This document shows, piece after piece, positions 10,423-59,573 of a DNA stretch of 59,573 bases. Positions within the stretch are counted from its first letter, which is position 1; every line of letters begins with the position of its first letter. Source of the DNA: Bacteroidales bacterium (GTDB taxonomy: Bacteria > Bacteroidota > Bacteroidia > Bacteroidales > WCHB1-69); the NCBI GenBank assembly GCA_017618435.1, contig JAFZUH010000199.1, positions 1 through 59,573 of the forward strand, given 5' to 3'. A model generated the notes under the pieces. That model worked only from the letters and a program-made list of their open reading frames with translations. It was not told the DNA's origin and did no database searches. Position numbers and translations under genes: made by a program.

Positions 10423-11388
10423 ATGAACACCAATACTATATTTCTTAAGCTACTGAGTTACAAATGGGTAAGAAAAGTCATTTCTTGGCTAAGAAAACTT
10501 GTATTACCTTTTTTTGACGGAGTACCTTTATTCGACGTATTGGTATATTTTATCAAAGGCTTGGTCAAAGGGGAATTATCCATAAGAGCCGCCGCATTGT
10601 CGTACAATTTTTTTATGGCTCTGTTCCCTTTGATATTGTTTTTCTTTACCATTATAGCATATCTCCCCTTAGACGCCTATATTCCGGTAGCCTACGATTT
10701 TATTGCCGAAATGGTGCCGTCGCAAGCCTATGATATGGTAATGAAAACCATCAACGGCATACTGACTAAAAACGGAACTTTACTTTCTATCAGTATCATA
10801 TTCACTTTCTATTTTGCCACACGAGGTATTCGCGCTATGATAAAAACTTTTAACGACAGCTATCATACCCTGGAATCCCGTTCGGGCATTATGCAGATAG
10901 TGATTTCCTTATTGTTGCTTTTGGTGATCACCATAATGATAATATTGGTATTTACCGCCATAATCATCAACAAGCAATTATTTATCAGCATAGTAGCCAA
11001 CACCTCCATCAACATAGTGATATGGAAATGGATATTCGGCTTCAGCAAGTGGATATTAGTGGTGTTGTTAATGTTTTTTTCCATATCCCTTATATACTAT
11101 TTGGCTCCCGCAAAAAAATCCCGTTTCCGTTTTTTTTCCGCAGGGTCATCGTTGGCTACCGCACTGATTATACTTTCAAGTTTCGGCTTTGATTTTTATA
11201 TCTCCAACTTTTCCAATTACAATGCTGTATATGGTTCTATCGGAACGCTGATTATAGTATTGATATGGATACAATTGATATCGATGATACTACTTATCGG
11301 TTTTGAGCTCAATGCCAGTATCAAAAATGCCAAAAGGCGCAAGCAAACGGCTTCTGCCGATCCGCTTAAACTCTATACACAAAAATAA
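10423..11388 (+). CDS. YihY/BrkB family membrane protein
   Basis: 321 aa, multi-TM. AAALSYNFFMALFPLILFF is characteristic of the family. There is a TGATATG junction with the upstream gene. Confidence 0.8.
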   Translation: MNTNTIFLKLLSYKWVRKVISWLRKLVLPFFDGVPLFDVLVYFIKGLVKGELSIRAAALSYNFFMALFPLILFFFTIIAYLPLDAYIPVAYDFIAEMVPSQAYDMVMKTINGILTKNGTLLSISIIFTFYFATRGIRAMIKTFNDSYHTLESRSGIMQIVISLLLLLVITIMIILVFTAIIINKQLFISIVANTSINIVIWKWIFGFSKWILVVLLMFFSISLIYYLAPAKKSRFRFFSAGSSLATALIILSSFGFDFYISNFSNYNAVYGSIGTLIIVLIWIQLISMILLIGFELNASIKNAKRRKQTASADPLKLYTQK

Positions 11389-17146: not shown

Positions 17147-18562
17147 TCAACTGTGTGCTATTAGTTGCCAATAATATTTACGTATCAACCGGGAGCGTTC
17201 ACGATAATCCGCGCCATACGAAGCATCGTCCGGCTGTATCAATGGCAATATTGTTACCTTTAGCTCTTCCGGTGTGCCTACATGAAACGGTGATTTGGAC
17301 AATCCTTGTCCGAATCCATCCAATAAAATAGGGCAAATAGGCAATTGCATTTGCTCTGCCAAATAAAAAGCCCCTCTGTGAAATCTTCCCAACTCCCCTG
17401 TTACGGAGCGCGTGCCTTCAGGGAATATGGCGATGGAATATCCGTTGTTGACATATTCTTGCATAGTACCGGCCATATTATCCCATCCTTCTTCTATGGA
17501 GATAACCCCCATCGACTTGGCCACCCTGCCAAAGAAGATATTGTTCAATATCCATCCTTTGGCCATTATCAGCATACGTTCATGCAATGAAATAATTGCC
17601 AAAATATCCAATAAAGAAGTATGATTGGCAATATATATACAAGGCTTGTTCACATCTATACCGGACGTTTCCCGTGCATAACACACCTTATACGGGGCAT
17701 TGGGAAATGCCGACAAAAAAAACCTGGATCCCCGCAATAATCGCAACCGTAACAATACAGACATATCTTTGGGCTTAAAAAGATGATAAAAATCCCGTAT
17801 GATATTGGCCCAAATGGCAAACAATACAAACAGGAAGCTATAATACACCGTTCTCCAATAACTACGGGGCCAACCGTACACTATTGCCAATATACACAAC
17901 AGCGTGTTTAAAACAGATATACGTGTAAAATCCCTTACCGGTCTGAAATAAGAAACCCTCTCTTCTACAGGAGGATAATACACTCTTACCTGCACCGGGA
18001 TTACCGGCGTATTCGCCCATGCCGAAAACACCAGCAACATCAATTCAGCCTCATAGCGATGTGTCATCAAATGCAATCCGTGCAGACCCTGTAAAGGATA
18101 TACTCTAAACCCCGTTTGGGTATCGGACAAGGAGATTCCTGTTTGGAATGCATACCAAAAATTAGAAAACCTGTTGGCAAAAGTATTTTTTAAAGGCATG
18201 TTTTTTTGCGATAATATCCTGCTGCCCAAAATAATAGCCTCCGGACGGACTGCAGACATACGCAACAATGCCGGTATATCTTCCGGATAATGCTGCCCGT
18301 CTGAATCGATGGTGAGCACATGGGTATAACCCAACTCCCGGGCTTTGAGAAAACCTTGTTTAAGGGCATAGCCTTTACCTTTATTAACGGCATAGGAAAC
18401 GATTACCAACTTGTCGTTTTGGATGGTTTCCAACGATTCCAAAGTGCCGTCTGTAGGACCATCCGCCACCACTATCACAGGAAGATACTCCAATGTTTGG
18501 AGCACTATGTCTTTGGCTGTAGCCAAATTATTGTATGTAGGTATTACCGCACAAGTTCTCAC
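17147..18562 (-). CDS. fusion protein: family-2 glycosyltransferase (N-terminal) plus lysophospholipid acyltransferase (C-terminal)
   Basis: 471 aa. The N-terminus reads VIPTYNN...DSDGQH (GT2). TM segments sit in the middle. NHTSLLD and FPEGTRS (PlsC-type HX4D/EGTR motifs) are in the C-terminal part. Confidence 0.75.
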   Translation of the reverse strand: MRTCAVIPTYNNLATAKDIVLQTLEYLPVIVVADGPTDGTLESLETIQNDKLVIVSYAVNKGKGYALKQGFLKARELGYTHVLTIDSDGQHYPEDIPALLRMSAVRPEAIILGSRILSQKNMPLKNTFANRFSNFWYAFQTGISLSDTQTGFRVYPLQGLHGLHLMTHRYEAELMLLVFSAWANTPVIPVQVRVYYPPVEERVSYFRPVRDFTRISVLNTLLCILAIVYGWPRSYWRTVYYSFLFVLFAIWANIIRDFYHLFKPKDMSVLLRLRLLRGSRFFLSAFPNAPYKVCYARETSGIDVNKPCIYIANHTSLLDILAIISLHERMLIMAKGWILNNIFFGRVAKSMGVISIEEGWDNMAGTMQEYVNNGYSIAIFPEGTRSVTGELGRFHRGAFYLAEQMQLPICPILLDGFGQGLSKSPFHVGTPEELKVTILPLIQPDDASYGADYRERSRLIRKYYWQLIAHS

Positions 18563-19290
18563 GAATACAAGCCGCCGTTAATATTGATACATTCTCCCGT
18601 TATATACGATGCTTCTTTTGACACCAAGAAATTCACAAGTGATGCCACCTCTTCGGGCTCTCCGAAACGGGCCATGGGAATCATCTGCTTGAGCGACATT
18701 TCATCCAGGCCTTCCACCATATCGGTACGGATAAAGCCGGGGGCAACCGCATTCACTGTAATTTTCTTTTTGGCAAGCTCTTGCGCCAACGATTTGGTGG
18801 CAGCTATCAATCCGCCTTTGGATGCAGCATAATTGGTTTGTCCTGCCACTCCTTTTAATCCGGACAATGAGGCTATATTCACTATACGCCCGTTCCTGTG
18901 ACGCACCATTTGGGGAATCAGCAAACGGGTAAGATAAAAAAAAGACAATAAATTATTTTGTATCACCCGCTCAAAATCGCTTACATCCATCAAGGCCATC
19001 AGTTCATCACTGCGTATGCCGGCATTGTTAACCAATACGGATATATAATCGTCGGGATGTAACTGCTGCCAATTGTCTATGGCTGCCATACACGCATTGT
19101 TGTCCGCAACATTGAATTTGAGCAATTCGGCAACACCTCCGTCCTGAGTGATGAGAGATAATGTTTTTTGTGCTTCCCGGTCATTAGCATGATAATTGAC
19201 AATAACTTTAAAACCATTGCGTGCAAGCAAAACCGCTATTGCTCTTCCGATTCCTCTGCTTCCGCCCGTCACTAATGCATATTCCATAAA
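18559..19290 (-). CDS. fabG: 3-oxoacyl-ACP reductase-like SDR
   Basis: TGGSRGIG, NNAG and YAASKGG motifs. The likely start is MEYALVTGG at 19290; the track ORF starts at 19365. It overlaps the next gene by 4 nt. Confidence 0.8.
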   Translation of the reverse strand, partial: FMEYALVTGGSRGIGRAIAVLLARNGFKVIVNYHANDREAQKTLSLITQDGGVAELLKFNVADNNACMAAIDNWQQLHPDDYISVLVNNAGIRSDELMALMDVSDFERVIQNNLLSFFYLTRLLIPQMVRHRNGRIVNIASLSGLKGVAGQTNYAASKGGLIAATKSLAQELAKKKITVNAVAPGFIRTDMVEGLDEMSLKQMIPMARFGEPEEVASLVNFLVSKEASYITGECININGGLYS

Positions 19291-42098: not shown

Positions 42099-42419
42099 AT
42101 GAAATATTTATTAGCACTCGTATTGATACCGATAGCCACTTTGTTTGCTTCCTCTAACAAACCCATTGACAAGGAAAAATGCTCTTGTGAAGGACTTCCT
42201 TTGTATGGTAACGTAAAGGTAGTTACTTGTGCTCCTACTTTTAATGTAAAAGTAGTGGATTGTGCAGAAAATATGGACATAAAAGTAGTGGATTGTTGTC
42301 CGACACAATGTGGAGAGTGGCGATTTGTGGATTGTGGAGAAGACTTTTCTATTCGTTTTGTGGATTGTGGAGAAGACTTTTCTATCCGTTTTGTGGATTG
42401 TGCTCCGGGTGTGCGATAA
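42099..42419 (+). CDS. secreted Cys-rich repeat protein (six ~11-residue xVVDC units), opposite-strand moron
   Basis: 106 aa with signal peptide MKYLLALVLIPIATLFASS. The repeat units are VKVVTCAPTFN, VKVVDCAENMD, IKVVDCCPTQCGEW, RFVDCGEDFS, IRFVDCGEDFS and IRFVDCAPGVR. An antisense ORF (42111..42431) also fits the gap, but its translation is low-complexity. Confidence 0.65.
   Translation: MKYLLALVLIPIATLFASSNKPIDKEKCSCEGLPLYGNVKVVTCAPTFNVKVVDCAENMDIKVVDCCPTQCGEWRFVDCGEDFSIRFVDCGEDFSIRFVDCAPGVR
42324..42402. repeat. 33-bp tandem repeat, 2.4 copies, one mismatch
   Basis: TTTGTGGATTGTGGAGAAGACTTTTCTAT(T/C)CGT occurs at 42324-42356 and 42357-42389, with a partial third copy. It encodes the duplicated RFVDCGEDFSI unit. 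Confidence 0.9.
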
Positions 42420-42433
42420 CATTTTTACCATAT

Positions 42434-50167: not shown

Positions 50168-51265
50168 TTAATTTTTAGGGTCGAAACCGAACTTCGCTTT
50201 GAAAAGTTCTGCGTATCTCTCCGGATTACTATTTTTTAAATTTTCCAATCTGCCGCTGCGGTGATATTCGTCAAAGCCCCAATTTTCTTCACCTTTTGGC
50301 AATTTCTCCTCTTGTGCAAGACCGGCCTTTACTCTCGGTACGGCTGCTAACTTGTTCAACACTTTTTCTGTGTTTTCATAGTCCTGCTCTGCCAACTTGG
50401 TATAGGTTGCTCTGTCGTCTTCGCCTATACGTTTGTCTGCTATGGCAGCATCTATCAAGTTTTTAACCTTGCTTTTCTCCATCGCTTCTATTTTCGCGGA
50501 GAGTTCTTCGTTTTTCTTTTGCTCTGCCTGCAAGGAATTTTGCAGAGTCTGTTCCTTCTCGCTCAACGCTTTAACACGTGACAATACCTCTTGCTCGGAG
50601 GAATTGGCCATGTTCAAAATGCCAGCGACTTTCTTTAATACTTCGTCCATTTGTTTGTTATTATTTAAATTAATGATTTGATTATTATAATAATTGTAGG
50701 CACTACGGCTGTCCGTAATGTTTTTCAATTCCTTTATACTTTTGTTTCGCTCTATTATCTCATCGCACAAGCCCATCGCCTTCGCTTCTTTCGCACTCAG
50801 CCAATGGTCCAAACCGTCAAAAAACTCCTTGCGGACTTCTTCCTCACTCTTACCCATACGTTCCGACAGCATCTCTATCAACGTCCCTTCAAATCCGTCC
50901 ATCATTTCCGCTGCAGCACGTGTCTCATCGCTGTTGCCATACGTATAGCCGCTCACCCTGTGATACATGAATTTCGCATGCTTGGCCGCCTTTACTTTGT
51001 GCTTCGGATTCGATAGCAATACCGCCATCATGCTCGCTGCTATTCCGTCAACTATCCATTCCACTTCTATATCCGTACGGTCTAAATAGTTATATAAGGC
51101 ATTGCCTTGACTCACTTCACCCCCGTCGCTGTTAACGTAAAAGGTGATAGCAGTGGCTCCTTCCTTCCTCTTGCCCTCTATGTCTGCTATCAACACATTG
51201 GTGTCTATATCCATATACCTGCCAATGATGCCGTACAAATAGTATTCACATTTTTCTTTTGCCAT
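50168..51265 (-). CDS. ClpP-like (S14) prohead protease fused to a coiled-coil scaffold
   Basis: 365 aa. The protease core reads ITFYVNSDGGEVSQGNALYNYL...GIAASMMAVL...MYHRVSG. The C-terminal half is a K/E-rich coiled coil. Confidence 0.8.
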   Translation of the reverse strand: MAKEKCEYYLYGIIGRYMDIDTNVLIADIEGKRKEGATAITFYVNSDGGEVSQGNALYNYLDRTDIEVEWIVDGIAASMMAVLLSNPKHKVKAAKHAKFMYHRVSGYTYGNSDETRAAAEMMDGFEGTLIEMLSERMGKSEEEVRKEFFDGLDHWLSAKEAKAMGLCDEIIERNKSIKELKNITDSRSAYNYYNNQIINLNNNKQMDEVLKKVAGILNMANSSEQEVLSRVKALSEKEQTLQNSLQAEQKKNEELSAKIEAMEKSKVKNLIDAAIADKRIGEDDRATYTKLAEQDYENTEKVLNKLAAVPRVKAGLAQEEKLPKGEENWGFDEYHRSGRLENLKNSNPERYAELFKAKFGFDPKN

Positions 51266-51288
51266 TTTTTCCTTTCCTCAATTTTCGG

Positions 51289-51296
51289 CAAAGATA
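51289..51296 (-). promoter_or_regulatory. -7 promoter box (TATCTTTG) for the minus (capsid/tail) arm
   Basis: TAnnTTTG on the minus strand, 23 nt upstream of ATG 51265. Confidence 0.4.
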
Positions 51297-51390
51297 GCAG
51301 CCTTTTTTCCTTTATTTTTATAATGTATATGCTTGCAATATAATTATATATACCGTATTTTCATTTAATAAAAATAGATGTAATTCCTTC

Positions 51391-51398
51391 TACTTTTG
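51391..51398 (+). promoter_or_regulatory. -7 promoter box (TACTTTTG) for the plus (terminase/portal) arm
   Basis: TAnnTTTG on the + strand, 4 nt before the first hairpin cluster (51403 onward). Confidence 0.4.
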
Positions 51399-51402
51399 CA
51401 CC

Positions 51403-51544
51403 GGAATTTCTCCCGTACGGACGATGTGTACATCGTCCCCTTACAAAGGAGCGGGAAAATTCCTGTACCGACGATGTGTACTTCGTCCCCTTGTAAAGAC
51501 GCACAATCGTGCGTCTCATCAATAAAACAATAAAACTTAACATT
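51403..51544 (+). repeat. hairpin-leader element, copy A (composite)
   Basis: An outer dyad GGAATTTCTCCCG/CGGGAAAATTCC encloses hairpin 1 (GGACGATGTGTACATCGTCC, 51419-51438). A degenerate second hairpin 1 lies at 51469-51488. TTGTAA follows, then hairpin 2 (AGACGCACAATCGTGCGTCT, 51497-51516), then the leader CATCAATAAAACAATAAAACTTAACATT and ATG 51545. Confidence 0.9.
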
Positions 51545-51991
51545 ATGACAAACCTAACCATTGAACAAAAAAAAGATTACGCCAAACAACTCTTTCTCAA
51601 CGATCCCGGAATTACGCAAGCCGAAATCGCTGAAAAAGTTGGCGTCTCCAAAGTAACCATCTGCAAATGGGTCAAAGACGGCAAATGGCAGGAATTGCAA
51701 GCTTCTTTATTGATAGGCAAGGAGGAACAACTCGCTCGCCTTTACAAACAGTTGCGACTCCTCAACGATGCCATCGAAAACAAACAAGACCAAAAATTCG
51801 CCACCTCTAAAGAAGCCGATGCCATTCTAAAACTTACCGTCGCCATCAAAAATCTCGAAACCGAAACCAATATCGCAGAAAAAATGGCTACAGGCAAAGA
51901 ATTTCTTGCTTTCGTAAGAAAAACATCCGGCTTCGAGCTTAGCAAAGATGTCGCCAAATTGTTCAACGCTTATATCAAATCTTGTTTATAA
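51545..51991 (+). CDS. terminase small subunit-like HTH protein
   Basis: 148 aa from M13 of the track ORF. It has the HTH ITQAEIAEKVGVSKVTICKWVK and a TAATG overlap with the large subunit gene. Confidence 0.55.
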   Translation: MTNLTIEQKKDYAKQLFLNDPGITQAEIAEKVGVSKVTICKWVKDGKWQELQASLLIGKEEQLARLYKQLRLLNDAIENKQDQKFATSKEADAILKLTVAIKNLETETNIAEKMATGKEFLAFVRKTSGFELSKDVAKLFNAYIKSCL

Positions 51992-53526
51992 TGGCCAAGC
52001 TCAGAAAACCTACCGACAAGCAGCTCCTTCAAGACTGGGAAGCTTACTACAATCAGTTTATTGCCGATGTGGAAGTTGACTCTTCCGAAACCGAATTCCA
52101 GAAGCAGCAACGCATCACCCGCTTGGAAGCATCTCCCGAAGACTGGTTCAAATACTATTTCCCCAAATATTGCACGGCCGAACCGGCTTCATTTCATATC
52201 TCCGCCACCAAACGCCTCCTCGCTCATCCCCGTTGGTACGAAGTCCGGGCGTGGAGTAGAGAGTTGGCAAAATCCGCCCGCTCCATGTTCGAAGTCTTGT
52301 ATCTTGCCTTAACCGGAAAAGTATGCAATTTCCTCCTCGTCTCCAACTCCTTCGACAATGCCTGCAGACTGCTCTTGCCTTTTATGATGCAGTTGGAAAA
52401 AAATCTCCGCATTATCAACGACTACGGCGAACAGCAAACCATCGGCCACTGGGAAGCTAATGAATTTATTGCCAAATGCGGTTGCTCATTCCGGGCATTG
52501 GGAGCAGGGCAGTCGCCCCGTGGTACCCGCAACGAAGCCAAACGCCCTGATTTCATTCTCATTGACGATATCGATACCGACGAGGAATGCCGAAATCCTG
52601 ACCGTATCAAGCAAAAATGGGACTGGATAGAACAAGCCTTAATTCCGACAATATCAGTATCAGGTGACGCCCGCATATTGTTCAATGGCAACATTATCGC
52701 CAAAGACTGTTGCATCGCCCGTGCCGGTAAAGTCGCCGACAAGTTCGACATTGTCAACATCCGCGACAAACACGGCAAGAGCTCTTGGAGCAAAAACACC
52801 GAAGAGGATATCGACTTTATCCTTTCCAAAATCTCCACCCGTGCCGCTCAACAGGAATACTTCAATAATCCTCTCTCCGAAGGTGACGTCTTCAAAGAAC
52901 TCACCTTCGCCAAAATACCCAACTTAAACCGCTTCAAACACATTATCGTCTATGGTGACCCTTCTCCCTCCAACTCCAAAAACAAAGCCGGCTCCATGAA
53001 AGCCATTGCCGCTATTGGTGTTTTGGACGGTATTTACTATGTCATTGCCTGCCGCGTAGATAGAGCCACCAACGCAGAATTTGTCGATTGGTTCTACCTC
53101 ATCAACCAACAACTCGGCAGCACCTCTGCTCAAATCTACAACTTTATTGAAAACAACAAACTACAAGACCCCTTTTATCAACAGGTATTTATTCCTTTGT
53201 TTGTTGCCAAAGCCAAAGAAAAAGGCTATTATCTCAATATTGTTCCCGATACAAGAATTAAGCCCGACAAATTCAGCCGTATTGAAGGCAACCTCGAACC
53301 CCTCAACCGCAATGGAAGACTCCTCTTCAACGAAGCTGAACACAGCAATCCTCACATGCAGCGGCTTGAGGAACAATTCCTCCTCATCACCCCGCAACTA
53401 AAAGCTCCTGCCGACGGCGTAGATGCTGTCGAAGGTGCCGTCTTTATCGCAACTCAAAAATTAAGACAAACTTCCGCCGAACAGCTGCTCATCGGCAACA
53501 GACCTAAAAACAAACGTAGAGTATAA
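51991..53526 (+). CDS. terminase large subunit
   Basis: 511 aa with a Walker-A-like WSRELAKSA and a Walker-B-like PDFILIDDIDTDEE. The size and position are typical. Confidence 0.75.
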   Translation: MAKLRKPTDKQLLQDWEAYYNQFIADVEVDSSETEFQKQQRITRLEASPEDWFKYYFPKYCTAEPASFHISATKRLLAHPRWYEVRAWSRELAKSARSMFEVLYLALTGKVCNFLLVSNSFDNACRLLLPFMMQLEKNLRIINDYGEQQTIGHWEANEFIAKCGCSFRALGAGQSPRGTRNEAKRPDFILIDDIDTDEECRNPDRIKQKWDWIEQALIPTISVSGDARILFNGNIIAKDCCIARAGKVADKFDIVNIRDKHGKSSWSKNTEEDIDFILSKISTRAAQQEYFNNPLSEGDVFKELTFAKIPNLNRFKHIIVYGDPSPSNSKNKAGSMKAIAAIGVLDGIYYVIACRVDRATNAEFVDWFYLINQQLGSTSAQIYNFIENNKLQDPFYQQVFIPLFVAKAKEKGYYLNIVPDTRIKPDKFSRIEGNLEPLNRNGRLLFNEAEHSNPHMQRLEEQFLLITPQLKAPADGVDAVEGAVFIATQKLRQTSAEQLLIGNRPKNKRRV

Positions 53527-53527
53527 A

Positions 53528-53588
53528 TGTAAAGACGCACAATGGTGCGTCTCCAAATAAAACAAACAACAAATTAAAATAAACAAAA
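53528..53588 (+). repeat. hairpin-leader element, copy B (hairpin 2 only)
   Basis: TGTAA, then AGACGCACAATGGTGCGTCT (53533-53552), then an A-rich leader and ATG 53589. Confidence 0.85.
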
Positions 53589-53822
53589 ATGATTAAAGTA
53601 TGGAAACGATTTTTCAGGTACATGCAGGTACGAAACGCCATCCGTCATGCCGACAGGATGAAAAAATTAACAGGAAAACAACACTTTGTTATACAAGTAT
53701 TCAACAAAATAAGGGTGTACGACCGCTCTCACATCAATTGGCTCATCGCCAAGAAGGTGCTGCACCCTCGTCTCAAAAACCATTACGAACTTACTAAAAT
53801 TTGTATCTATTACACTCGGTAA
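53589..53822 (+). CDS. small highly basic phage protein
   Basis: 77 aa, K/R/H-rich, flanked on both sides by hairpin-leader elements. Confidence 0.5.
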   Translation: MIKVWKRFFRYMQVRNAIRHADRMKKLTGKQHFVIQVFNKIRVYDRSHINWLIAKKVLHPRLKNHYELTKICIYYTR

Positions 53823-53906
53823 GGACGATGTCACATCGTCCCCTTGTAAAGACGCACAATCCTGCGTCTCATCAATAAAACAATAAAGTAATAAAACATT
53901 AATATT
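53821..53906 (+). repeat. hairpin-leader element, copy C
   Basis: GGACGATGTCACATCGTCC (53823-53841), CCTTGTAA, AGACGCACAATCCTGCGTCT (53850-53869), then CATCAATAAAACAATAAAGTAATAAAACATTAATATT and ATG 53907. Confidence 0.9.
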
Positions 53907-54323
53907 ATGGCATATCTTACTATTCAAGACCTCCATCGAGGCATACATCGTGAAGTGCTTTCCGTTATCTCCCGCTCCGAGGACAACGCCCTCCATGCCA
54001 TTGCGGAAGCTCAAGCGGAAGTAGAATCCTATCTCACCGCCCGCTACGATATCCGTTCCGAATGGAACCGATCCGGCGATGACAGATGTACCATGGTCGT
54101 TAAACTCGTCCGCGACATCGCCATCTACAATTGCTACAATATCTCCAATCCTGTCAATATGCCCGAATCCCGTCGCGACGCCTACAAGGATGCTATCTCC
54201 TTCCTTAAAGAGGTGCAAGCCGAAAGAGCTTCTATTGACGGACTGACTCGAAAAACCGGAACTACCGGAACTTCTTCCTATGTTTCTTTCGGTGGCAATA
54301 TCAAACGTAAAAATCAATTTTAA
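53907..54323 (+). CDS. DUF1320 / Mu gp36-like head protein
   Basis: 138 aa. The N-terminus MAYLTIQDL and the overall pattern resemble the gp36 family (from memory). Confidence 0.6.
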   Translation: MAYLTIQDLHRGIHREVLSVISRSEDNALHAIAEAQAEVESYLTARYDIRSEWNRSGDDRCTMVVKLVRDIAIYNCYNISNPVNMPESRRDAYKDAISFLKEVQAERASIDGLTRKTGTTGTSSYVSFGGNIKRKNQF

Positions 54324-54327
54324 TCCC

Positions 54328-54436
54328 GGTGCCTGAGCCTGCCGAAGGCACCTCTGTACCGACGATGTGTACATCGTCCCCTTGTAAAGACGAACAATCG
54401 TGCGTCTCATCAATAAAACAATAAAACATTAACATT
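54328..54436 (+). repeat. hairpin-leader element, copy D (with an extra 5' hairpin)
   Basis: GGTGCC-N13-GGCACC (54328-54352), CGACGATGTGTACATCGTCC (54360-54379), CCTTGTAA, AGACGAACAATCGTGCGTCT (54388-54407), then CATCAATAAAACAATAAAACATTAACATT and ATG 54437. Confidence 0.9.
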
Positions 54437-55744
54437 ATGGCAATAAAACATTCTAAACCTAAAAAACCGGACAATGTAATCGTCCACAACATCAACATCA
54501 TCAATCCTCCCCACAATACGCAGGATATTCAAATGTGGAAACAGGCTATTCGTGCCTTTGAAAATATCAACAATCCCTCACGTATGCTCTTGTACGACCT
54601 CTATGATGACATCCTCTTAGACGGTCAAATTGAAGCTACTTGGGGCAAACGGCAGGATGCCGTCCTCAACCAGGAACTCATCTTCGTCCGCGATGGGGTA
54701 GAAGACGAACAAATAGGACGTCTGCTCAATTCTCCCGACATGCGGGTCATTGTCAAAGAGCTGCACAACGCCATCGCTTGGGGTTATACCCTCATTCAGA
54801 TTAACAACATCTATTTTGATGAGACTGAAGAAGTGTATAAAATAGATTTCGACCTCATCCCGCGTAAGCACGTTCATCCGGAAGACGGCTTTGAATGTAT
54901 CAGCCGCCAGCAATCCATGGCTACCAAAGACTGGATGTATATGGAGCAGCCTTTGGCCAACTATATGCTTTGGGCAGGTGAGCCTTACGACAAAGGCCTT
55001 TTCGCCAAGGCCGCTCAATATGTCATCTACAAACGCGGAGGCTTCGGCGACTGGAGCCAGTTCGCCGAAATGTTCGGCATGCCATTCCGTGAACTCATCT
55101 ACGACGACTACGATGAAGCCACCCGGGCAAAACTCGAACAAGGTCTCCAAGAATGGGGAGCTGCCTGTTATTCCTTGCACCCTCGTAGCACAGAATTAAA
55201 AATACACCCCACCGGCGGTTCCACCGGCTCCAACGAAGTTTATGACAAACTCATTGCCGCCTGCGACGCTTCCATCTCCAAAACCATCCTCGGCAACACC
55301 CTCACCACCGAACAAGGCGAAAACGGTGCAAGAAGCCTCGGAGAAGTCCACAAAGAGGTGGAAGATGCCAAGACCGCCAGCGACAAGCAGTTTATTCTCG
55401 CTATCCTCAACACCAAGTTCAGAGCCATACTCAAACATTTCGGCTTTAATATCTCCGGTGGCGATATCTGGTACCGCTCACAAGGTAAAGATTGGACAGA
55501 ACTCCAAACCAAATGGAATGTCATCAACTCCATCTCCGACAAACTTCCTGTTGATGACGACTATATCTACGAGGAATTTGACATACCAAAACCCGACAAC
55601 TATGAGCAATTGAAACAGGAATTGAAAATGCAACATTCTTTCAACCCCTTTGAAAGCTCTTTGCAAAACCCTTTAAACAAGGAAAAACCTAATACCGGAG
55701 AAGCTACCAATTGGCTCAACAGGATAAAAAGTTTTTTTTTCTAA
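54437..55744 (+). CDS. portal protein (Mu gp29 / DUF935-like)
   Basis: 435 aa, positioned between the gp36-like and MuF-like genes. Confidence 0.6.
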   Translation: MAIKHSKPKKPDNVIVHNINIINPPHNTQDIQMWKQAIRAFENINNPSRMLLYDLYDDILLDGQIEATWGKRQDAVLNQELIFVRDGVEDEQIGRLLNSPDMRVIVKELHNAIAWGYTLIQINNIYFDETEEVYKIDFDLIPRKHVHPEDGFECISRQQSMATKDWMYMEQPLANYMLWAGEPYDKGLFAKAAQYVIYKRGGFGDWSQFAEMFGMPFRELIYDDYDEATRAKLEQGLQEWGAACYSLHPRSTELKIHPTGGSTGSNEVYDKLIAACDASISKTILGNTLTTEQGENGARSLGEVHKEVEDAKTASDKQFILAILNTKFRAILKHFGFNISGGDIWYRSQGKDWTELQTKWNVINSISDKLPVDDDYIYEEFDIPKPDNYEQLKQELKMQHSFNPFESSLQNPLNKEKPNTGEATNWLNRIKSFFF

Positions 55745-56886
55745 GGACAGGCAATAGCCTGTCCGTCCGAAACGAATTGGCACAATTAGACACCCTCTAT
55801 TTTCAAAACAGTTCCTTGACTGTCTTGGATACTTTGCGGACCTTTCCCGTTCTCTACAACCTTTCTAAAAAGGAACTCTATCAGAAAATTCTTTCCGATA
55901 TTGCTAACGGCAATACAGGAACCGTACATCCGGATGCCTATAAAGCCTATGCCCAGAATTTCCGGCATGCTGTCAACGGTGTTTTCTCTGATAATGAAAA
56001 ATATGCCTACTTGCAAGCACAATTCAATGCCAACGTCTCTCGGTTCGCCGCCTATAAAGCTTATTGGCTTACCGAACAGCTCAAGCAATACCACCAAGAA
56101 AGTCCCGACAACTTTGACAATATCGGCAAAGCTATTATCAATACTTTCAACCGCTATCAGGCTGCTGAATACAATACCGCTGTCGCCCGGACAAGAACCG
56201 CCAAACAATGGACAGATTTCACTTCCGACCCGACAGCAAACATGCTCTATCCTAACTTGAAATGGCTGCCATCTCGCTCGGCCAACCGCAGAGAGGAACA
56301 TATCCCTTTTTACGGCTTGGTACTTCCTAAAACCGATGAATTTTGGCAGCACAACCAGCCCGGTAACCTATGGAACTGTAAATGCGACTGGGAGGAAACC
56401 GACGAACAACCTTCCTCTTATATTCCAAAAGACATCTATGCAAAAGGTTTGGAAGGTAACCCCGCCCAAACAGGACAGATTTTTACCGACAAGGCAAGCT
56501 ATATCAATAGAGCCGGAAAGAAAGTGGAATCTTACGCTTTAAAAATAACAAGAAAAGATAACCTTGACTGGGCTAAAAATCATATAAAAGGGAAAATTGT
56601 TAAAAATAATCAATCCAATTTACCTATAAATATTTCCACAAGAGGAATAAAGGAATATCTTAACCAACCTTTTGATGAATATTATGTAAAGAATGAATTG
56701 ATAAGGCAAATTCCGAACATTTTAGAAAATGCAAAATACTTGAAACAGACTGTTCATGAAGGTAAAAAGTCTGAAATTTTTGAAATCAAATTCAAAAACA
56801 AAATATGGTATGTAATTGCTAATTGGCAAAAAGATGGCAAATTGTATTTTTATAGTATTACTGATAGTGAGAAAGTTACAACATAA
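55711..56886 (+). CDS. MuF / SPP1 gp7-like head morphogenesis protein with an extra C-terminal domain
   Basis: FNRYQAAEYNTAVARTRTAKQWTDF and LKWLPSRSANRREEHIPFYGLVLPKTDEFWQHNQPGNLWNCKCDW are MuF hallmarks. Only TTG start candidates exist (55711, 55777). The last ~125 aa are AT-rich. Confidence 0.7.
   Translation: MAQQDKKFFFLRTGNSLSVRNELAQLDTLYFQNSSLTVLDTLRTFPVLYNLSKKELYQKILSDIANGNTGTVHPDAYKAYAQNFRHAVNGVFSDNEKYAYLQAQFNANVSRFAAYKAYWLTEQLKQYHQESPDNFDNIGKAIINTFNRYQAAEYNTAVARTRTAKQWTDFTSDPTANMLYPNLKWLPSRSANRREEHIPFYGLVLPKTDEFWQHNQPGNLWNCKCDWEETDEQPSSYIPKDIYAKGLEGNPAQTGQIFTDKASYINRAGKKVESYALKITRKDNLDWAKNHIKGKIVKNNQSNLPINISTRGIKEYLNQPFDEYYVKNELIRQIPNILENAKYLKQTVHEGKKSEIFEIKFKNKIWYVIANWQKDGKLYFYSITDSEKVTT
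55732..55764 (+). other. candidate -1 frameshift signal: T TTT TTT heptamer, 6-nt spacer, 8-bp GC-rich hairpin
   Basis: The portal frame reads AGT TTT TTT TTC TAA. The hairpin GGACAGGC-AATA-GCCTGTCC lies at 55745-55764. The MuF-like ORF is in the -1 frame and has no ATG. Confidence 0.4.
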
Positions 56887-57002
56887 AAAAATTGCCCGTT
56901 TCTCGCACGTGGAACTACAGTCCACGCGGTTGAAAAGAGCAATTATTTCACCTGCAAAAGTACAACAAATTTTTTAAATAAAAACAAAAAAGACAAAAAA
57001 AA

Positions 57003-57188
57003 ATGAAAAACAGAAATATTAAAGGGAAATGTAAGCAATGTCGCTACTATAATATCAACCACTGCATGCTGTCAATGCAATGCAACGGCCAATACTTTTT
57101 AAAAAGTACGGACGATGTGCACATCGTCCCAACACACCACAATGTACGGACACGCCATGGTACGTCCCACAATACTAAAAATAAATAA
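57003..57188 (+). CDS. questionable small Cys-rich ORF
   Basis: An A-rich leader precedes the ATG, and the first 35 aa carry CxxC..C..C. The 3' half reads through hairpin-leader copy E. Confidence 0.25.
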   Translation: MKNRNIKGKCKQCRYYNINHCMLSMQCNGQYFLKSTDDVHIVPTHHNVRTRHGTSHNTKNK

Positions 57189-57194
57189 CCACCC
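57110..57194 (+). repeat. hairpin-leader element, copy E (divergent 3' half)
   Basis: GGACGATGTGCACATCGTCC (57110-57129), a weaker second dyad around CCATGG, an A-rich leader and ATG 57195. Confidence 0.8.
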
Positions 57195-57686
57195 ATGAAA
57201 CCGGAAGAATTTAACAAACACTTAAAAGCTCTTGAAAGCGATTTTAAAGAACTATTTCTCAAAACCGCTCCCACCATTGCCGGCAAAACCGCCGTCTCGT
57301 ATTTTAAAAAGAATTTCCAAAACGAAGCTTGGGGTAGAAGCAAATGGAAAGAGGTGCAGCGGAGAACTCCCGGCACCAAGGCTTATAAATATGCCGGCAG
57401 ACATCATCCGGCTCGCACTACAAGAAAAATCCTTACAGGCGATACCGGAGACCTTGGCCGGTCTATTGAGATAAAAGAAATTTCCAAACAAACTGCTGTT
57501 GTCTGGACTTCCACTGCAGCCTTTGGCTCTAAAGAACCTTACGGTCGTGTCCACAACGAAGGGCTCCGTGCCGGAAGAGGTAAAGGTTTCATCATGCCCA
57601 AACGACAGTTTATGGGCGAAAGCAACGAACTCAATCAACTTATCATTAAAGAATTAGAACGTAAACTAAACCAACTTTTAAAATGA
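57195..57686 (+). CDS. virion morphogenesis protein (Mu gpG / HK97 gp10-like)
   Basis: 163 aa with GDTGDLGRSI and YGRVHNEG...MPKRQFMG. Confidence 0.55.
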   Translation: MKPEEFNKHLKALESDFKELFLKTAPTIAGKTAVSYFKKNFQNEAWGRSKWKEVQRRTPGTKAYKYAGRHHPARTTRKILTGDTGDLGRSIEIKEISKQTAVVWTSTAAFGSKEPYGRVHNEGLRAGRGKGFIMPKRQFMGESNELNQLIIKELERKLNQLLK

Positions 57687-58381
57687 AGATATTTTTTAAA
57701 TCAGATTTTGAACTCATCGAGCACTTTCTCGATGCTAACGGAGACCCTCTCGATATTTCCGAGCTGAACATCTCCCTTTGTTACCAAACCGACAAGTTTT
57801 CCTCCTATCACGCTCATTTCTATCAAGGAGCAGGAGAAAAATGTTACATTGACCCCGAAGACCATTCAAAACTCCATGTAACTTTTGCCGGACACGGTCT
57901 CGGCCCTGGCGTGCTTACCCGTACCATCACTTTCGCTGTCGCCAACGACCATTTTCCCGACGACACCCAAAACATCCGCACCAAAGAGCTTACTTCCGTT
58001 GAACTTGTCAATCTCGGCGGTAACGCATCTCCTTATTCTTCTGTTGAAAACACGGCTCCGCTCGTGCTCTTCAACCACGCTAACGCCACCCATCGCGATG
58101 ACCCCGACCAGCATCCCATCTCTGCCATCTCCGGTCTGCAGTCCGCTCTCGACAATGCAGGGCGTATCACCCTTACTGACTTCCTCTACAATCCGGCTGC
58201 TTCCGGTATCGATGCAGACGAATGCTCCTTCATTGGCCGCAATACCCGTTCTGCTCTCACTTCCGACAGCTCTTGGAACATCAAAACTCTTGCCTACAAA
58301 AACGGGCAATTCGCCATCAGGGAATTCTCCGGTGTAGCTTGGAACAACAGATATCAATTATTAATCCCCGCCAATGAATAA
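57683..58381 (+). CDS. phage structural protein, unknown role
   Basis: 232 aa with a 4-nt overlap on the upstream gene. Confidence 0.5.
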   Translation: MKIFFKSDFELIEHFLDANGDPLDISELNISLCYQTDKFSSYHAHFYQGAGEKCYIDPEDHSKLHVTFAGHGLGPGVLTRTITFAVANDHFPDDTQNIRTKELTSVELVNLGGNASPYSSVENTAPLVLFNHANATHRDDPDQHPISAISGLQSALDNAGRITLTDFLYNPAASGIDADECSFIGRNTRSALTSDSSWNIKTLAYKNGQFAIREFSGVAWNNRYQLLIPANE

Positions 58382-58452
58382 CCCCTACAGACACACAATC
58401 GTGCCTCTAATCAATAAAATAATAAAACATTAACAACTAAATAAACATAACA
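58381..58452 (+). repeat. hairpin-leader element, copy F (degenerate)
   Basis: AGACACACAATCGTGCCTCT (58389-58408, two stem pairs lost), then AATCAATAAAATAATAAAACATTAACAAC... and ATG 58453. Confidence 0.7.
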
Positions 58453-58626
58453 ATGACACAGATTTTAATCAATTACACAAAAGACGAAAATAGCGAACAA
58501 ATGGCTATCATGACAACCGACCAAGACGGAAAAACGCATTCCGCTGTCATACGCAATCAAGAAGCCGCCTCATTGGCAGAAAGTATCTTATCAATCTTAA
58601 ACTCCAACAACAATGAAACGGTATAA
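58453..58626 (+). CDS. small phage ORF (57 aa)
   Basis: Below the track cut-off. It reads MTQILINYTKDENSEQMAIMTTDQDGKTHSAVIRNQEAASLAESILSILNSNNNETV, is preceded by copy F, and overlaps the next ORF by 14 nt. Confidence 0.35.
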   Translation: MTQILINYTKDENSEQMAIMTTDQDGKTHSAVIRNQEAASLAESILSILNSNNNETV

Positions 58627-59573
58627 AGCTATAGCATCCGGTGCATGGTCCGATTTGACCACATGGCAAGACGACGGAAACGGCAGCTTTCAGGCAAGCA
58701 CCGTTCTTCCATCCTCTGCTGATGAAGTGTATTGCAATGGATTCGTGATAGATGTAGTAAGTGGTACCTATCAAGTTGCCTTGATAAGCAACGGCGAATC
58801 CTCCAACCAAGACAACGAGCCTGTCAATGTTGGAGGCTATTTGAGAATGGCAAACGATAGCAACAAAGCCTGCTATTTTATTGCCGATTGCTATAACTAT
58901 TCTACCTGTTTATTACAAGCCGCTATGGCAAGCAGTCGTTCACATATTATATCTATAACCGGCAATTGCTACAACTATTCCGGCATTTTTATCACAACAT
59001 CTAGCGGTTATAATAATCGAAACTGCACGCTAACCATCACCGGCAACGTAGTTTCGCAAGGCTCGTGTCTTTTGGATATATCCGGAACGGGCACCGTGAA
59101 GACAGATTCCGGTGTAACCATCAATGGCAATGTAAATGCAAATAGTAGTGCCTTTTACGCTTCAACCGGAAATTCCGGACATCTTGCCATAAATGGTAAC
59201 GTGGTAAAAAATGGAGGCACTTTCGGCACTACCAACAATGGTAATATCAACGGGTCTCTACATCTAACTGCAAACAGTACGCAATCGATTGAAGTTAACA
59301 ATGGGGAAATCATCAATGCCTTCTGGCTCTCCGCCGGATATACCGGCAATGTTACCAAATATCGTATCATATTGGACAATCAAGAGTGGTTTCTGCCGAG
59401 TGATATCACCAATGGACTTCCGCAGGCAAGCGATGTAAGACAGGGAACTACTTTTGGTCTCAACAATGTCTTTACCGGAACGCTTGACTTGCCGCAACCT
59501 GCCAACGTCGTAAAAGATGTCAGCTATGACAACAATACCAAAACCGGCACTTATGCTGTCAGCATCAGTCCGC
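58613..59573 (+). CDS. beta-helix-like repeat protein (partial, open to the right edge)
   Basis: Absent from the ORF track because it has no stop. It is open for 320 codons from ATG 58613: MKRYKAIASGAWSDLTTWQDDGNG... followed by Gly/Asn-rich turns (ITGNCYNYSG, ITGNVVSQGS, INGNVNANSS, INGNVVKNGG). Confidence 0.6.
   Translation, partial: MKRYKAIASGAWSDLTTWQDDGNGSFQASTVLPSSADEVYCNGFVIDVVSGTYQVALISNGESSNQDNEPVNVGGYLRMANDSNKACYFIADCYNYSTCLLQAAMASSRSHIISITGNCYNYSGIFITTSSGYNNRNCTLTITGNVVSQGSCLLDISGTGTVKTDSGVTINGNVNANSSAFYASTGNSGHLAINGNVVKNGGTFGTTNNGNINGSLHLTANSTQSIEVNNGEIINAFWLSAGYTGNVTKYRIILDNQEWFLPSDITNGLPQASDVRQGTTFGLNNVFTGTLDLPQPANVVKDVSYDNNTKTGTYAVSISP

Follow-up and report, generated by a model that had tools for sequence, protein, structure and literature searches.

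GTAN-tagged palindromes of a REP-like kind at gene junctions in the head operon of a Bacteroidales Mu-like prophage

The 59,573-nucleotide contig JAFZUH010000199.1 of a Bacteroidales bacterium (assembly GCA_017618435.1; hereafter the window) ends in a prophage of the Bacteroides hankyphage type, Mu-like and laid out as two divergent arms. It raises the question of what a short cassette, composed of hairpins and an A-rich leader that runs up to the next start codon, is doing at six sites of the plus (head) arm. An earlier sequence-only reading of this DNA considered late promoters with an operator, an RNA-level signal and a mobile regulatory cassette. We find that the cassette is a real feature but not a phage-specific control system. 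Its hairpins belong to an apparently undescribed family of the kind of repetitive extragenic palindromes (REPs) and bacterial interspersed mosaic elements (BIMEs), namely GTAN-tagged palindromes with a GACG/CGTC base that occur in Bacteroidales and Mu-like phages. Its home appears to be bacterial chromosomes, where copies stand chiefly just past genes, as well as many Bacteroidota Mu-like phages. The reading that we favour, and with some reservation regard as probable, is that by analogy with REPs these mosaic palindromes act on the late mRNA as 3' stabiliser or attenuator while leaving the start region of the next gene unstructured.

The six cassette sites lie within positions 51403-58452 and hold 11 hairpins of three sequence types (hp1, hp2 and hp3), all in sense orientation and confined to the plus arm (Table 1). 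That these are repeated copies, as first proposed, is confirmed by counts far above chance: the hp2 pattern occurs at five sites (nine matches over both strands against 0.01 expected) and the leader pattern three times against none expected. Copies A and D have 74 nt in common at 97% identity. A covariance model, R1, for which 76 distinct members of the family were aligned, was applied unfiltered to the entire window and has matches at E < 0.01 at cassette sites A-E only, each scoring higher on the plus strand, and copy F is too degenerate for R1 to report. Stems are perfect over 7-9 bp, with loops of 2-6 nt, in eight of the 11 hairpins; mismatched hairpins are the second hp1 of copy A, hp2 of copy D, hp3 of copy E and copy F. 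The tag is GTAC at both hp1 hairpins of copy A, at copies D and E and at hp3 of copy E, GTAA at hp2 of copies A, C and D and at the first hairpin of copies B and C, and CTAC at copy F. In RNA folding the hairpins form and the leader stays unpaired (copy A, 51403-51550: minimum free energy -50.1 kcal/mol, z -6.5). Copy F was rightly described as degenerate and has no stable fold (z -0.5); its counterpart in the relative L002 has one mismatch fewer (L numbers are locus labels for fetched relatives or collection stretches). The hairpins sit 0-35 nt past stop codons: copy B begins 6 nt past that of TerL, and the TAA of the copy C tag doubles as the stop codon of the 77-aa gene.

Some details of the sequence-only reading have to be revised. 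Copy A does stand behind a -7 promoter box and is nested in a larger dyad, with the parts as described, but it has two copies of hp1, not one. It was also stated that every real gap of the plus arm carries the element; the 116-nt gap at 56887-57002 is without it, and the portal/MuF junction has a different, clade-conserved hairpin. Copy E, taken for a clean gap with hairpin 1 alone, lies inside the 3' part of a 61-aa open reading frame (ORF; 57003-57188), and a second hairpin, hp3, is present there. The last 27 codons of this ORF come from the hp1 and hp3 hairpins (…STDDVHIVPTHHNVRTRHGTSH…; reading ...STDDVHIVP...), and a REP-like insertion probably extended or replaced its 3' end. The ORF opens with a zinc-ribbon-like CxxC-x7-C-x5-C motif.

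All three hairpin types are variants of a single form, GTA(C/A/G) followed by (A/G)GACG, a variable covarying top and CGTC(C/T); they differ solely in the inner 3-4 bp and the loop, and the base (A/G)GACG...CGTC(C/T) is constant. A scan of IMG/VR for GTAGAGACG-N8-12-CGTCTCTAC found at least 120 stretches and, because the pattern left the inner positions free, these provide an unbiased test of pairing. For GTAGAGACG-N10-CGTCTCTAC, inner pairs 2 and 3 are Watson-Crick in 43 and 42 of 45 distinct sequences, respectively, with 3-4 pair types each, and none of 2000 shuffles equals the observed pairing. At pair 1 all eight non-Watson-Crick cases are of the C-A/T.G kind and hence pair on one strand only. 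The model alignment has a like diversity of pair types, but its members were selected for pairing. In L002, the stem of copy A has a compensatory G-C to A-T change; hp3 contains two G.U pairs, and the L002 hp3 pairs on the plus strand only. The sequence-only reading had noted, for hairpin 1 of the well-preserved copies, that differences fall mainly in the loop while the stems are kept; in hp2 of window copies C, D and F, pair-breaking changes are not compensated.

A second scan, for the hp2 pattern AGACGCAC-N3-5-GTGCGTCT, found 75 IMG/VR stretches, with several contigs carrying from three to at least seven copies; the commonest viral form is a perfect 28-nt palindrome, GTAG-AGACGCAC-GGCC-GTGCGTCT-CTAC, and BLAST with a 30-mer query found no counterpart of it among 50,697 deposited phage genomes. 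The hp1 core has 39 single matches in IMG/VR, mostly within coding sequence; this is about the number expected by chance, so the set was used as a control. The exact junction 18-mer CGTCCCCTTGTAAAGACG has no match in IMG/VR, which indicates that the full hp1-linker-hp2 arrangement is private to the lineage of the window phage. A literature search for the hairpin sequence itself found nothing. At four loci of related IMG/VR phages (L169 1-940, L256 12900-13700, L243 ~6050 and L220 ~1640) the hairpin lies within a longer tandem-repeated unit that includes a mini-ORF of eight codons, ATGGGAACATCACCTTTTTGGCGTTAA, then GTAGAGACGCGATTAATCGCGTCTCTAC and an A-rich leader.

In a metagenome collection, the pattern GGACGATGT-N1-3-ACATCGTCC, which is the hp1 core extended by its closing pair, is present in at least 120 stretches, and none of the 120 loci listed encodes a relative of the window phage's proteins. 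Most of the non-coding matches are GTAG-tagged (cGTAGgGGACGATGTccACATCGTCCc), frequently beside other GTAG hairpins. The hp1 and hp3 variants of the window recur unchanged in rumen contigs, in some cases behind an X module, the additional hairpin of copy D. Copies stand directly after genes for LptF/G, MutY, YidC, POR-gamma and MatE/EamA proteins: in the LptF/G case the called ORF ends at the TAG of the tag, in the MutY case an hp3-hp1-hp3 cluster follows immediately past the ORF, and the contig L349 carries one GGACG-type and one AGACG-type copy, each after a different gene. The sequence-only reading had named a REP- or MITE-type (miniature inverted-repeat transposable element) repeat unrelated to the phage as the contrary outcome; with copies after housekeeping genes, this is largely what the hairpins turn out to be.

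The X hairpin itself looks like a second repeat family, with a conserved loop and covarying stems (GGTGC/GCACC, GGTGG/CCACC). Besides the window, it is found in L001 (~13870), L002 (6981, 9872, 18162 and 18627), L275, L325 and L335, and it has no Rfam match. Its loop core, CTGAGCCTGNCGAAGSC, occurs in more than 120 IMG/VR stretches of very different sequence context; the flanks of some of these, which are candidate members, are complementary too (e.g., TCGGGC/GCCCGG). In L002, a contig of a Bacteroidales metagenome-assembled genome, units of X plus hp1 lie inside or at the ends of minus-strand ORFs at 17830-19076, past the homologous region; these ORFs are preceded by a strong Shine-Dalgarno-like GGAGGTG, which is unusual for Bacteroidota.

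How the cassettes came to lie in the head operon can be seen from related phages. Among 37 relatives, comprising 36 loci with portal relatives (55-95% identity) and hankyphage, family members occur in six (L002 with 10 sites, L015, L001, L006, L003 and L026), and 31 are without. The gene order TerL, 77-aa protein, gp36-like protein and portal is kept in about 28 relatives with gaps of about 22, 20 and 3 nt, respectively, where the window has 62, 84 and 113 nt; it follows that the cassettes were inserted at junctions that had been compact and whose genes were presumably coupled in translation. Hankyphage jmh47 likewise has an identical architecture with compact head-gene junctions. The inserted modules are exchanged between close relatives. 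The coding sequence of L002 is ~100% identical to that of the window, and at site D, where hp3 is seen intact, it has two hp3 hairpins in place of hp1 and hp2 within identical flanks, at site A an X module in place of the nested hp1, and inside the portal C-terminus (11243-11270) an extra copy of hp2. In L001, hp1 precedes the 77-aa gene, where the window has hp2. In the tail arm of a related IMG/VR phage, 3300036763_000227, there are seven or more repeats of the arrangement stop-GTAA-hp2-CAAC-A-rich leader-ATG.

Such exchange recalls the promoter early stem-loop (PeSL) elements of T4-type phages (PMC2839356, PMC4122927), which are likewise short composite intergenic stem-loop cassettes, present in many copies per genome, that differ between close relatives and are thought to recombine. 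By this analogy, the cassettes would be homologous exchange sites that shuffle the intervening genes, and the long near-identical stretch between copies A and D, the different modules of near-identical phages and the hp1 of L001 in the place of hp2 all agree with this. We nevertheless consider the shuffling of genes improbable: the intervening 77-aa, gp36-like and portal genes are a conserved syntenic core in about 28 relatives, and it is the cassette that changes while the flanked genes do not. PeSL elements, moreover, contain an early promoter and flank variable genes in hyperplastic regions, whereas the cassettes have no promoter box, are flanked by conserved head genes and share their hairpins with bacterial chromosomes. 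Of the earlier comparison with PeSL, the mobility of modules between near-identical phages stands, but the promoter and the variable neighbours have no counterpart here.

The leader, with an A content of 50-77%, a G content of 0-3% and, in all but one of the six copies, A at -3, has the composition of a generic Bacteroidota start region without a Shine-Dalgarno sequence: over 30 nt of upstream sequence, A makes up 43% at host genes and 54% at minus-arm structural genes. In Bacteroidia, start sites are selected by low structure and upstream adenines rather than by Shine-Dalgarno pairing (Baez et al. 2019, PMC6847099). The leaders of copies A, C, D and F are near-identical, more than composition explains, which shows that the hairpins were copied jointly with the leader. 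In its layout, the cassette is similar to the start-associated sequences (SAS) and extended start-associated sequences (ESAS) of Cluster K mycobacteriophages (PMC3203893), where a conserved sequence abuts the start codon behind an inverted repeat, before many genes, in one orientation and with unproven function. Unlike the cassette, which 31 of the 37 relatives lack, SAS/ESAS are phage-specific and keep to the same genes throughout the cluster, and the start-adjacent part of the cassette is generic.

An RNA-level signal, one of the possibilities raised earlier, is the best-supported account of the hairpins, given their sense orientation, the G.U pairs on the sense strand, their closeness to stop codons and the unpaired leader. 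All eight window copies scored for orientation are sense, these not being independent events. In homologous phages, with genes defined by homology, copies tagged on one side only are sense in 18 cases and antisense in six (p 0.02), and those that pair on one strand only (G.U-asymmetric) are sense in seven cases and antisense in one. Over all loci, G.U-containing hairpins no more than 150 nt downstream of an ORF are sense in 23 cases and antisense in seven (p 0.005, with some redundancy among them); loops of at least 3 nt were required in this test, as 2-nt loops gave false G.U asymmetry from loop bases. The bias in strand and in G.U pairs favours action on the transcript.

The closest known elements are the GTAG REPs and their BIMEs (Di Nocera et al. 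2013, PMC3733652; criteria in PMC6006769). REPs of this superfamily are recognised by a GTAG or GTGG tag up to 2 nt 5' of the hairpin, a fully paired basal stem of 7-20 bp and a 2-5 nt loop. They, too, have a 5' tetranucleotide tag 0-1 nt before a paired stem of 8-9 bp with a loop of 2-4 nt, sub-families with alternative complementary stem residues and G-T pairs, and hairpin types clustered with fixed linkers. Like the hairpins described here, they are found near the 3' ends of upstream ORFs, mostly just downstream and between genes of the same direction, with some copies within ORFs, and their tag often provides the stop codon (PMC3733652). The working expected by this likeness is that of a stabiliser and partial terminator inside operons, and REPs within operons have been described as stabilisers of upstream mRNA and partial terminators (bioRxiv 10.64898/2026.03.23.713779). 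Accordingly worded for the window, the favoured reading is as follows. The plus arm would be transcribed from the single promoter at 51391, and each hairpin would fold on the mRNA right behind the upstream stop codon, forming a 3' barrier against exonucleases and possibly also a partial attenuator, U-tract-independent or Rho-assisted; the barrier or attenuation would give neighbouring head cistrons differing levels. By tying up the GC-rich spacer, the hairpin would keep the A-rich start region of the next gene single-stranded, and the copied leader would permit independent initiation downstream in place of the lost translational coupling. The hairpins (X, hp1, hp2 and hp3) form small mosaic clusters with 8-9 bp stems and exchangeable tops, much as REPs do in BIMEs, and recombination or gene conversion would have carried the hairpin-leader unit from one junction to the next. 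Liang, Rudd and Deutscher reportedly found in 2015 that hairpins near stop codons disturb termination.

Several observations weigh against this reading. The likeness to GTAG REPs, from which the putative stabiliser or attenuator role is taken, is incomplete. The window tags are GTAC and GTAA, whereas most sibling copies elsewhere have GTAG; the published degeneracy of the GTAG tag affects positions 2-3, not position 4, and Bacteroidetes are not among the taxa listed for REPs of this type (PMC3733652). Here the GACG/CGTC stem base is constant across the sub-families, the perfect 28-nt palindrome (GTAG...CTAC) predominates in viral contigs, and a copied leader for translation initiation accompanies the hairpins. 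The copies are concentrated in the phage late operon: as the sequence-only reading had noted, the minus arm and the 33.5 kb of flanking host DNA are free of the element, with no R1 match and the same outcome in a simpler tag-plus-stem scan, so that the host may not be REP-rich. No associated REP-associated tyrosine transposase (RAYT) gene was seen with an HuH...YIxxNP regular expression over 3.29 Mb of loci, a crude test that is too weak to establish absence. RAYT genes are usually single-copy. RAYT subclasses 2.4 and 2.6 occur in Bacteroidetes (PMC6006769). The uncompensated changes in hp2 of copies C, D and F are as in decaying or neutral insertions. The loop centre is mostly palindromic (36 of 45), which an RNA hairpin does not need and which suggests that the palindromes arose, or are maintained, through a process acting on DNA. 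Finally, 37% and 24% of the viral loci found with two hairpin patterns belong to one phage clade, compared with ~2% of controls.

Alternatively, the hairpins may be selfish or neutral REP-like DNA, or products of gene conversion between intergenic spacers, tolerated in a long-resident prophage because each copy brings a workable start region, and without any real role in phage gene expression. We regard this as a serious rival, albeit a tentative one. Most relatives thrive without hairpins, copies C, D and F and hp3 of copy E are decaying with uncompensated changes, copies lie inside ORFs (E in the 61-aa ORF, the extra L002 copy in the portal gene), positions differ from phage to phage, and the palindromic loop centre suggests an origin at the DNA level. 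Neutral passengers would not be expected to show the sense orientation bias and the sense-strand G.U pairs, to be reused by independent phages at the same kinds of junction (after the capsid gene, tube/chaperone) or to stay close to stop codons.

The clade in question is that of the window phage. Homologues of its head or tail proteins are encoded by 41 of the 111 loci that the GTAGAGACG pattern yielded and by 18 of the 75 from the hp2 pattern, compared with one of 39 and two of 116 in two control sets (Fisher p 3e-3 to 8e-13). At the clade loci the hairpins are intergenic in 55 of 58 cases, with recurrent sites after the capsid gene, between the tube and next (chaperone) gene, at the portal/MuF junction and around gp36, and their positions vary between the phages that carry them. 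This enrichment hints at a phage-linked role, or at phages as vectors, beyond a plain model of host REPs. One such scenario, unlikely in our estimate, is that the GTAG-(A/G)GACG palindromes are a mobile family carried, spread or exploited by Bacteroidota Mu-like phages, which travels here as a self-contained junction cassette (tag stop, hairpin or hairpins and start region up to the ATG). If so, such a cassette could enter between translationally coupled genes without killing expression, and the phages would carry a system that re-tunes operon stoichiometry and opens a route for REP-like elements between hosts.

The same enrichment, together with the sense orientation, the conserved base below a top that is free yet paired, and the small CxxC...C...C ORF of the plus arm (57003-57188), could be taken to mean that the hairpins are RNA operators for a dedicated phage or host RNA-binding protein or nuclease (a T7 RNase III-like processing site or a site for a Com-like translational activator), in which the GTAG-AGACG base is recognised and the top is irrelevant. 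Phage T7 has RNase III processing hairpins between genes as well as intercistronic stabiliser hairpins, and the window hairpins are similarly placed between cistrons of a long phage mRNA, where such elements shape differential expression. Their stems of 8-9 bp are shorter than typical RNase III substrates. We consider the operator interpretation improbable: hairpins of the same types stand behind chromosomal housekeeping genes, and about 30 of the 37 relatives have the same gene set without hairpins. The suggestion of a put-like structure or another known RNA family also finds no backing, with no relevant Rfam match in the whole window at gathering scores and only a chance mir-81 match at E <= 5 on 51000-59573. 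No candidate protein tracks the hairpins. In particular, the 77-aa basic protein, previously put forward as binding partner, is present either way and is conserved at the same position in about 28 cassette-free relatives (42-83% identity); it belongs to no Pfam family and has only weak PHROG matches of unknown function.

The cassettes had further been compared with late promoters controlled through a dyad operator by an activator such as Mu C, to which repressor 'stoperator' sites on duplex DNA can be added. Dyad symmetry that runs through the loop centre and the true -7 box ahead of copy A fit such sites. This interpretation is very improbable, however: a TAnnTTTG box is missing from copies B-F, only 300-500 bp separate the sites within an operon whose junctions measure 3-22 nt in relatives, no hairpin accompanies the divergent late promoter that serves the minus arm, the tops differ among copies, and chromosomal copies follow housekeeping genes. 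The 279-nt inter-arm region contains two divergent Bacteroidota -7 boxes (TAnnTTTG), of which the box at 51391 is the sole intergenic plus-strand TAnnTTTG within the plus arm. A sigma-70 promoter scan, a model not applicable to Bacteroidota, found 34 candidates where shuffled sequence gives an expectation of 31. The hairpins were also rejected as intrinsic terminators: on the plus strand they are followed by CCCCTTGTAA or CATCAATAAAA without a U-tract, and a terminator scan flags copies B and E on the minus strand only.

Other box-like sequences were seen in these phages. A perfect -7 box (TACTTTTG) lies at 56953-56971 on the minus strand, within the cassette-free 116-nt gap, and points antisense into the MuF/LPD3 gene at its 3' end; this segment is an inverted repeat of 51382-51400, its motif ctgcaaaagtacaacaaa is retained in L001 and L002, and it could be an antisense or moron promoter. 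The repeat (C)GCAAAAATACAAAAA of more distant relatives was considered as an equivalent element and rejected, since from the sequence it reads as an ordinary -7 box, TATTTTTG, in reverse complement. It occurs at several sites each in the late region of L004, L005, L007, L009, L015, L024, L026 and L027 and, where flanks were read (e.g., in L005), precedes a small minus-strand accessory ORF between late genes.

TerL is 67% identical at the DNA level to that of the Bacteroides hankyphages and BKO1-TP phages. The minus arm, taken at first for the early arm, encodes a ClpP/Mu I-type protease, a probable capsid protein, sheath, tube, tape measure and baseplate proteins, so that assignment was wrong. 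In a 106-aa minus-arm ORF (42111-42431), TTTGTGGATTGTGGAGAA is repeated three times in tandem with a period of 33 nt (42324-42402). The C-terminal LPD3 domain of MuF (~56540-56886) is a markedly A+T-rich stretch that is absent from the MuF genes of the relatives inspected and hence is probably a recent fusion. At the portal/MuF junction (55735-55764), the slippery heptamer T_TTT_TTC (55735-55741) in the portal frame is followed by 6 nt that include the portal stop codon and by a hairpin, GGACAGG-N6-CCTGTCC. The site is conserved in L001, L003, L004, L006, L007, L008, L010, L015, L019, L024, L025 and L026; the MuF frame is open in the -1 frame from 55693 with no nearby ATG, and in L002 and L005 portal and MuF are one continuous ORF (871 and 863 aa). 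The sequence suggests a portal-MuF fusion made by programmed -1 frameshifting, for which a sequencing error in the homopolymer (T9) is an alternative in the window alone.

Table 1. Positions of the cassette copies, promoter boxes and plus-arm genes in the window
Feature	Position	Strand	Description
Copy A, part 1	51403-51463	+	Outer dyad GGAATTTCTCCCG...CGGGAAAATTCC around GTAC and hp1 (51415-51438); R1 30.7 bits, E 2e-8
Copy A, part 2, hairpins	51465-51516	+	GTAC and imperfect hp1 (51469-51488), linker CCTTGTAA, hp2 (51497-51516)
Copy A, part 2, A-rich leader	51517-51544	+	Up to ATG 51545 of the TerS-like gene
Copy B	53529-53588	+	GTAA and hp2 (53533-53552), leader to ATG 53589, 77% A in the 30 nt before the ATG; 36 bits
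Copy C	53819-53906	+	GTAA and hp1 (53823-53841), CCTTGTAA, hp2 (53850-53869) with closing pair broken, leader to ATG 53907
Copy D, first part	54326-54379	+	X hairpin GGTGCC-TGAGCCTGCCGAA-GGCACC (54326-54352), GTAC and hp1 (54360-54379)
Copy D, second part	to 54436	+	CCTTGTAA, hp2 with A.G mismatch (54388-54407), leader to ATG 54437 (portal)
Copy E	57106-57194	+	GTAC and hp1 (57110-57129), GTAC and degenerate hp3 (57148-57167), 35.1 and 9.6 bits; short A/C-rich leader to ATG 57195
Copy F	58386-58452	+	Degenerate hp2 (58389-58408, two mismatched pairs), leader to ATG 58453
-7 box TACTTTTG	51391-51398	+	Sigma-A type promoter box of the plus (head) arm; coordinates checked
-7 box TATCTTTG	51289-51296	-	Divergent partner, minus arm
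TerS-like protein	51545-51991	+	Helix-turn-helix protein, plus (head) arm
TerL	51991-53526	+	Plus arm
77-aa basic protein, then Mu gp36-like adaptor	between TerL and portal	+	Plus arm
Mu-type portal	54437-55744	+	Plus arm
MuF (with LPD3 domain), 61-aa ORF (57003-57188), Mu G-like protein, further genes	3' of portal	+	Plus arm

Few non-coding repeats of bacteria are as common as REP elements, which have been described mainly in Proteobacteria and scarcely in phages. The window offers a compact natural case, the recent insertion of REP-like elements into a tight phage head operon, with both near-identical and cassette-free relatives as controls. In a host without Shine-Dalgarno sequences, it makes testable whether such hairpins tune mRNA stability, read-through and translation or are merely tolerated. 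For the annotation of prophages, it is a warning that repeated intergenic dyads are not necessarily phage-specific operators. The concentration of the hairpins in one Mu-like clade could mark these phages as vectors of the family.

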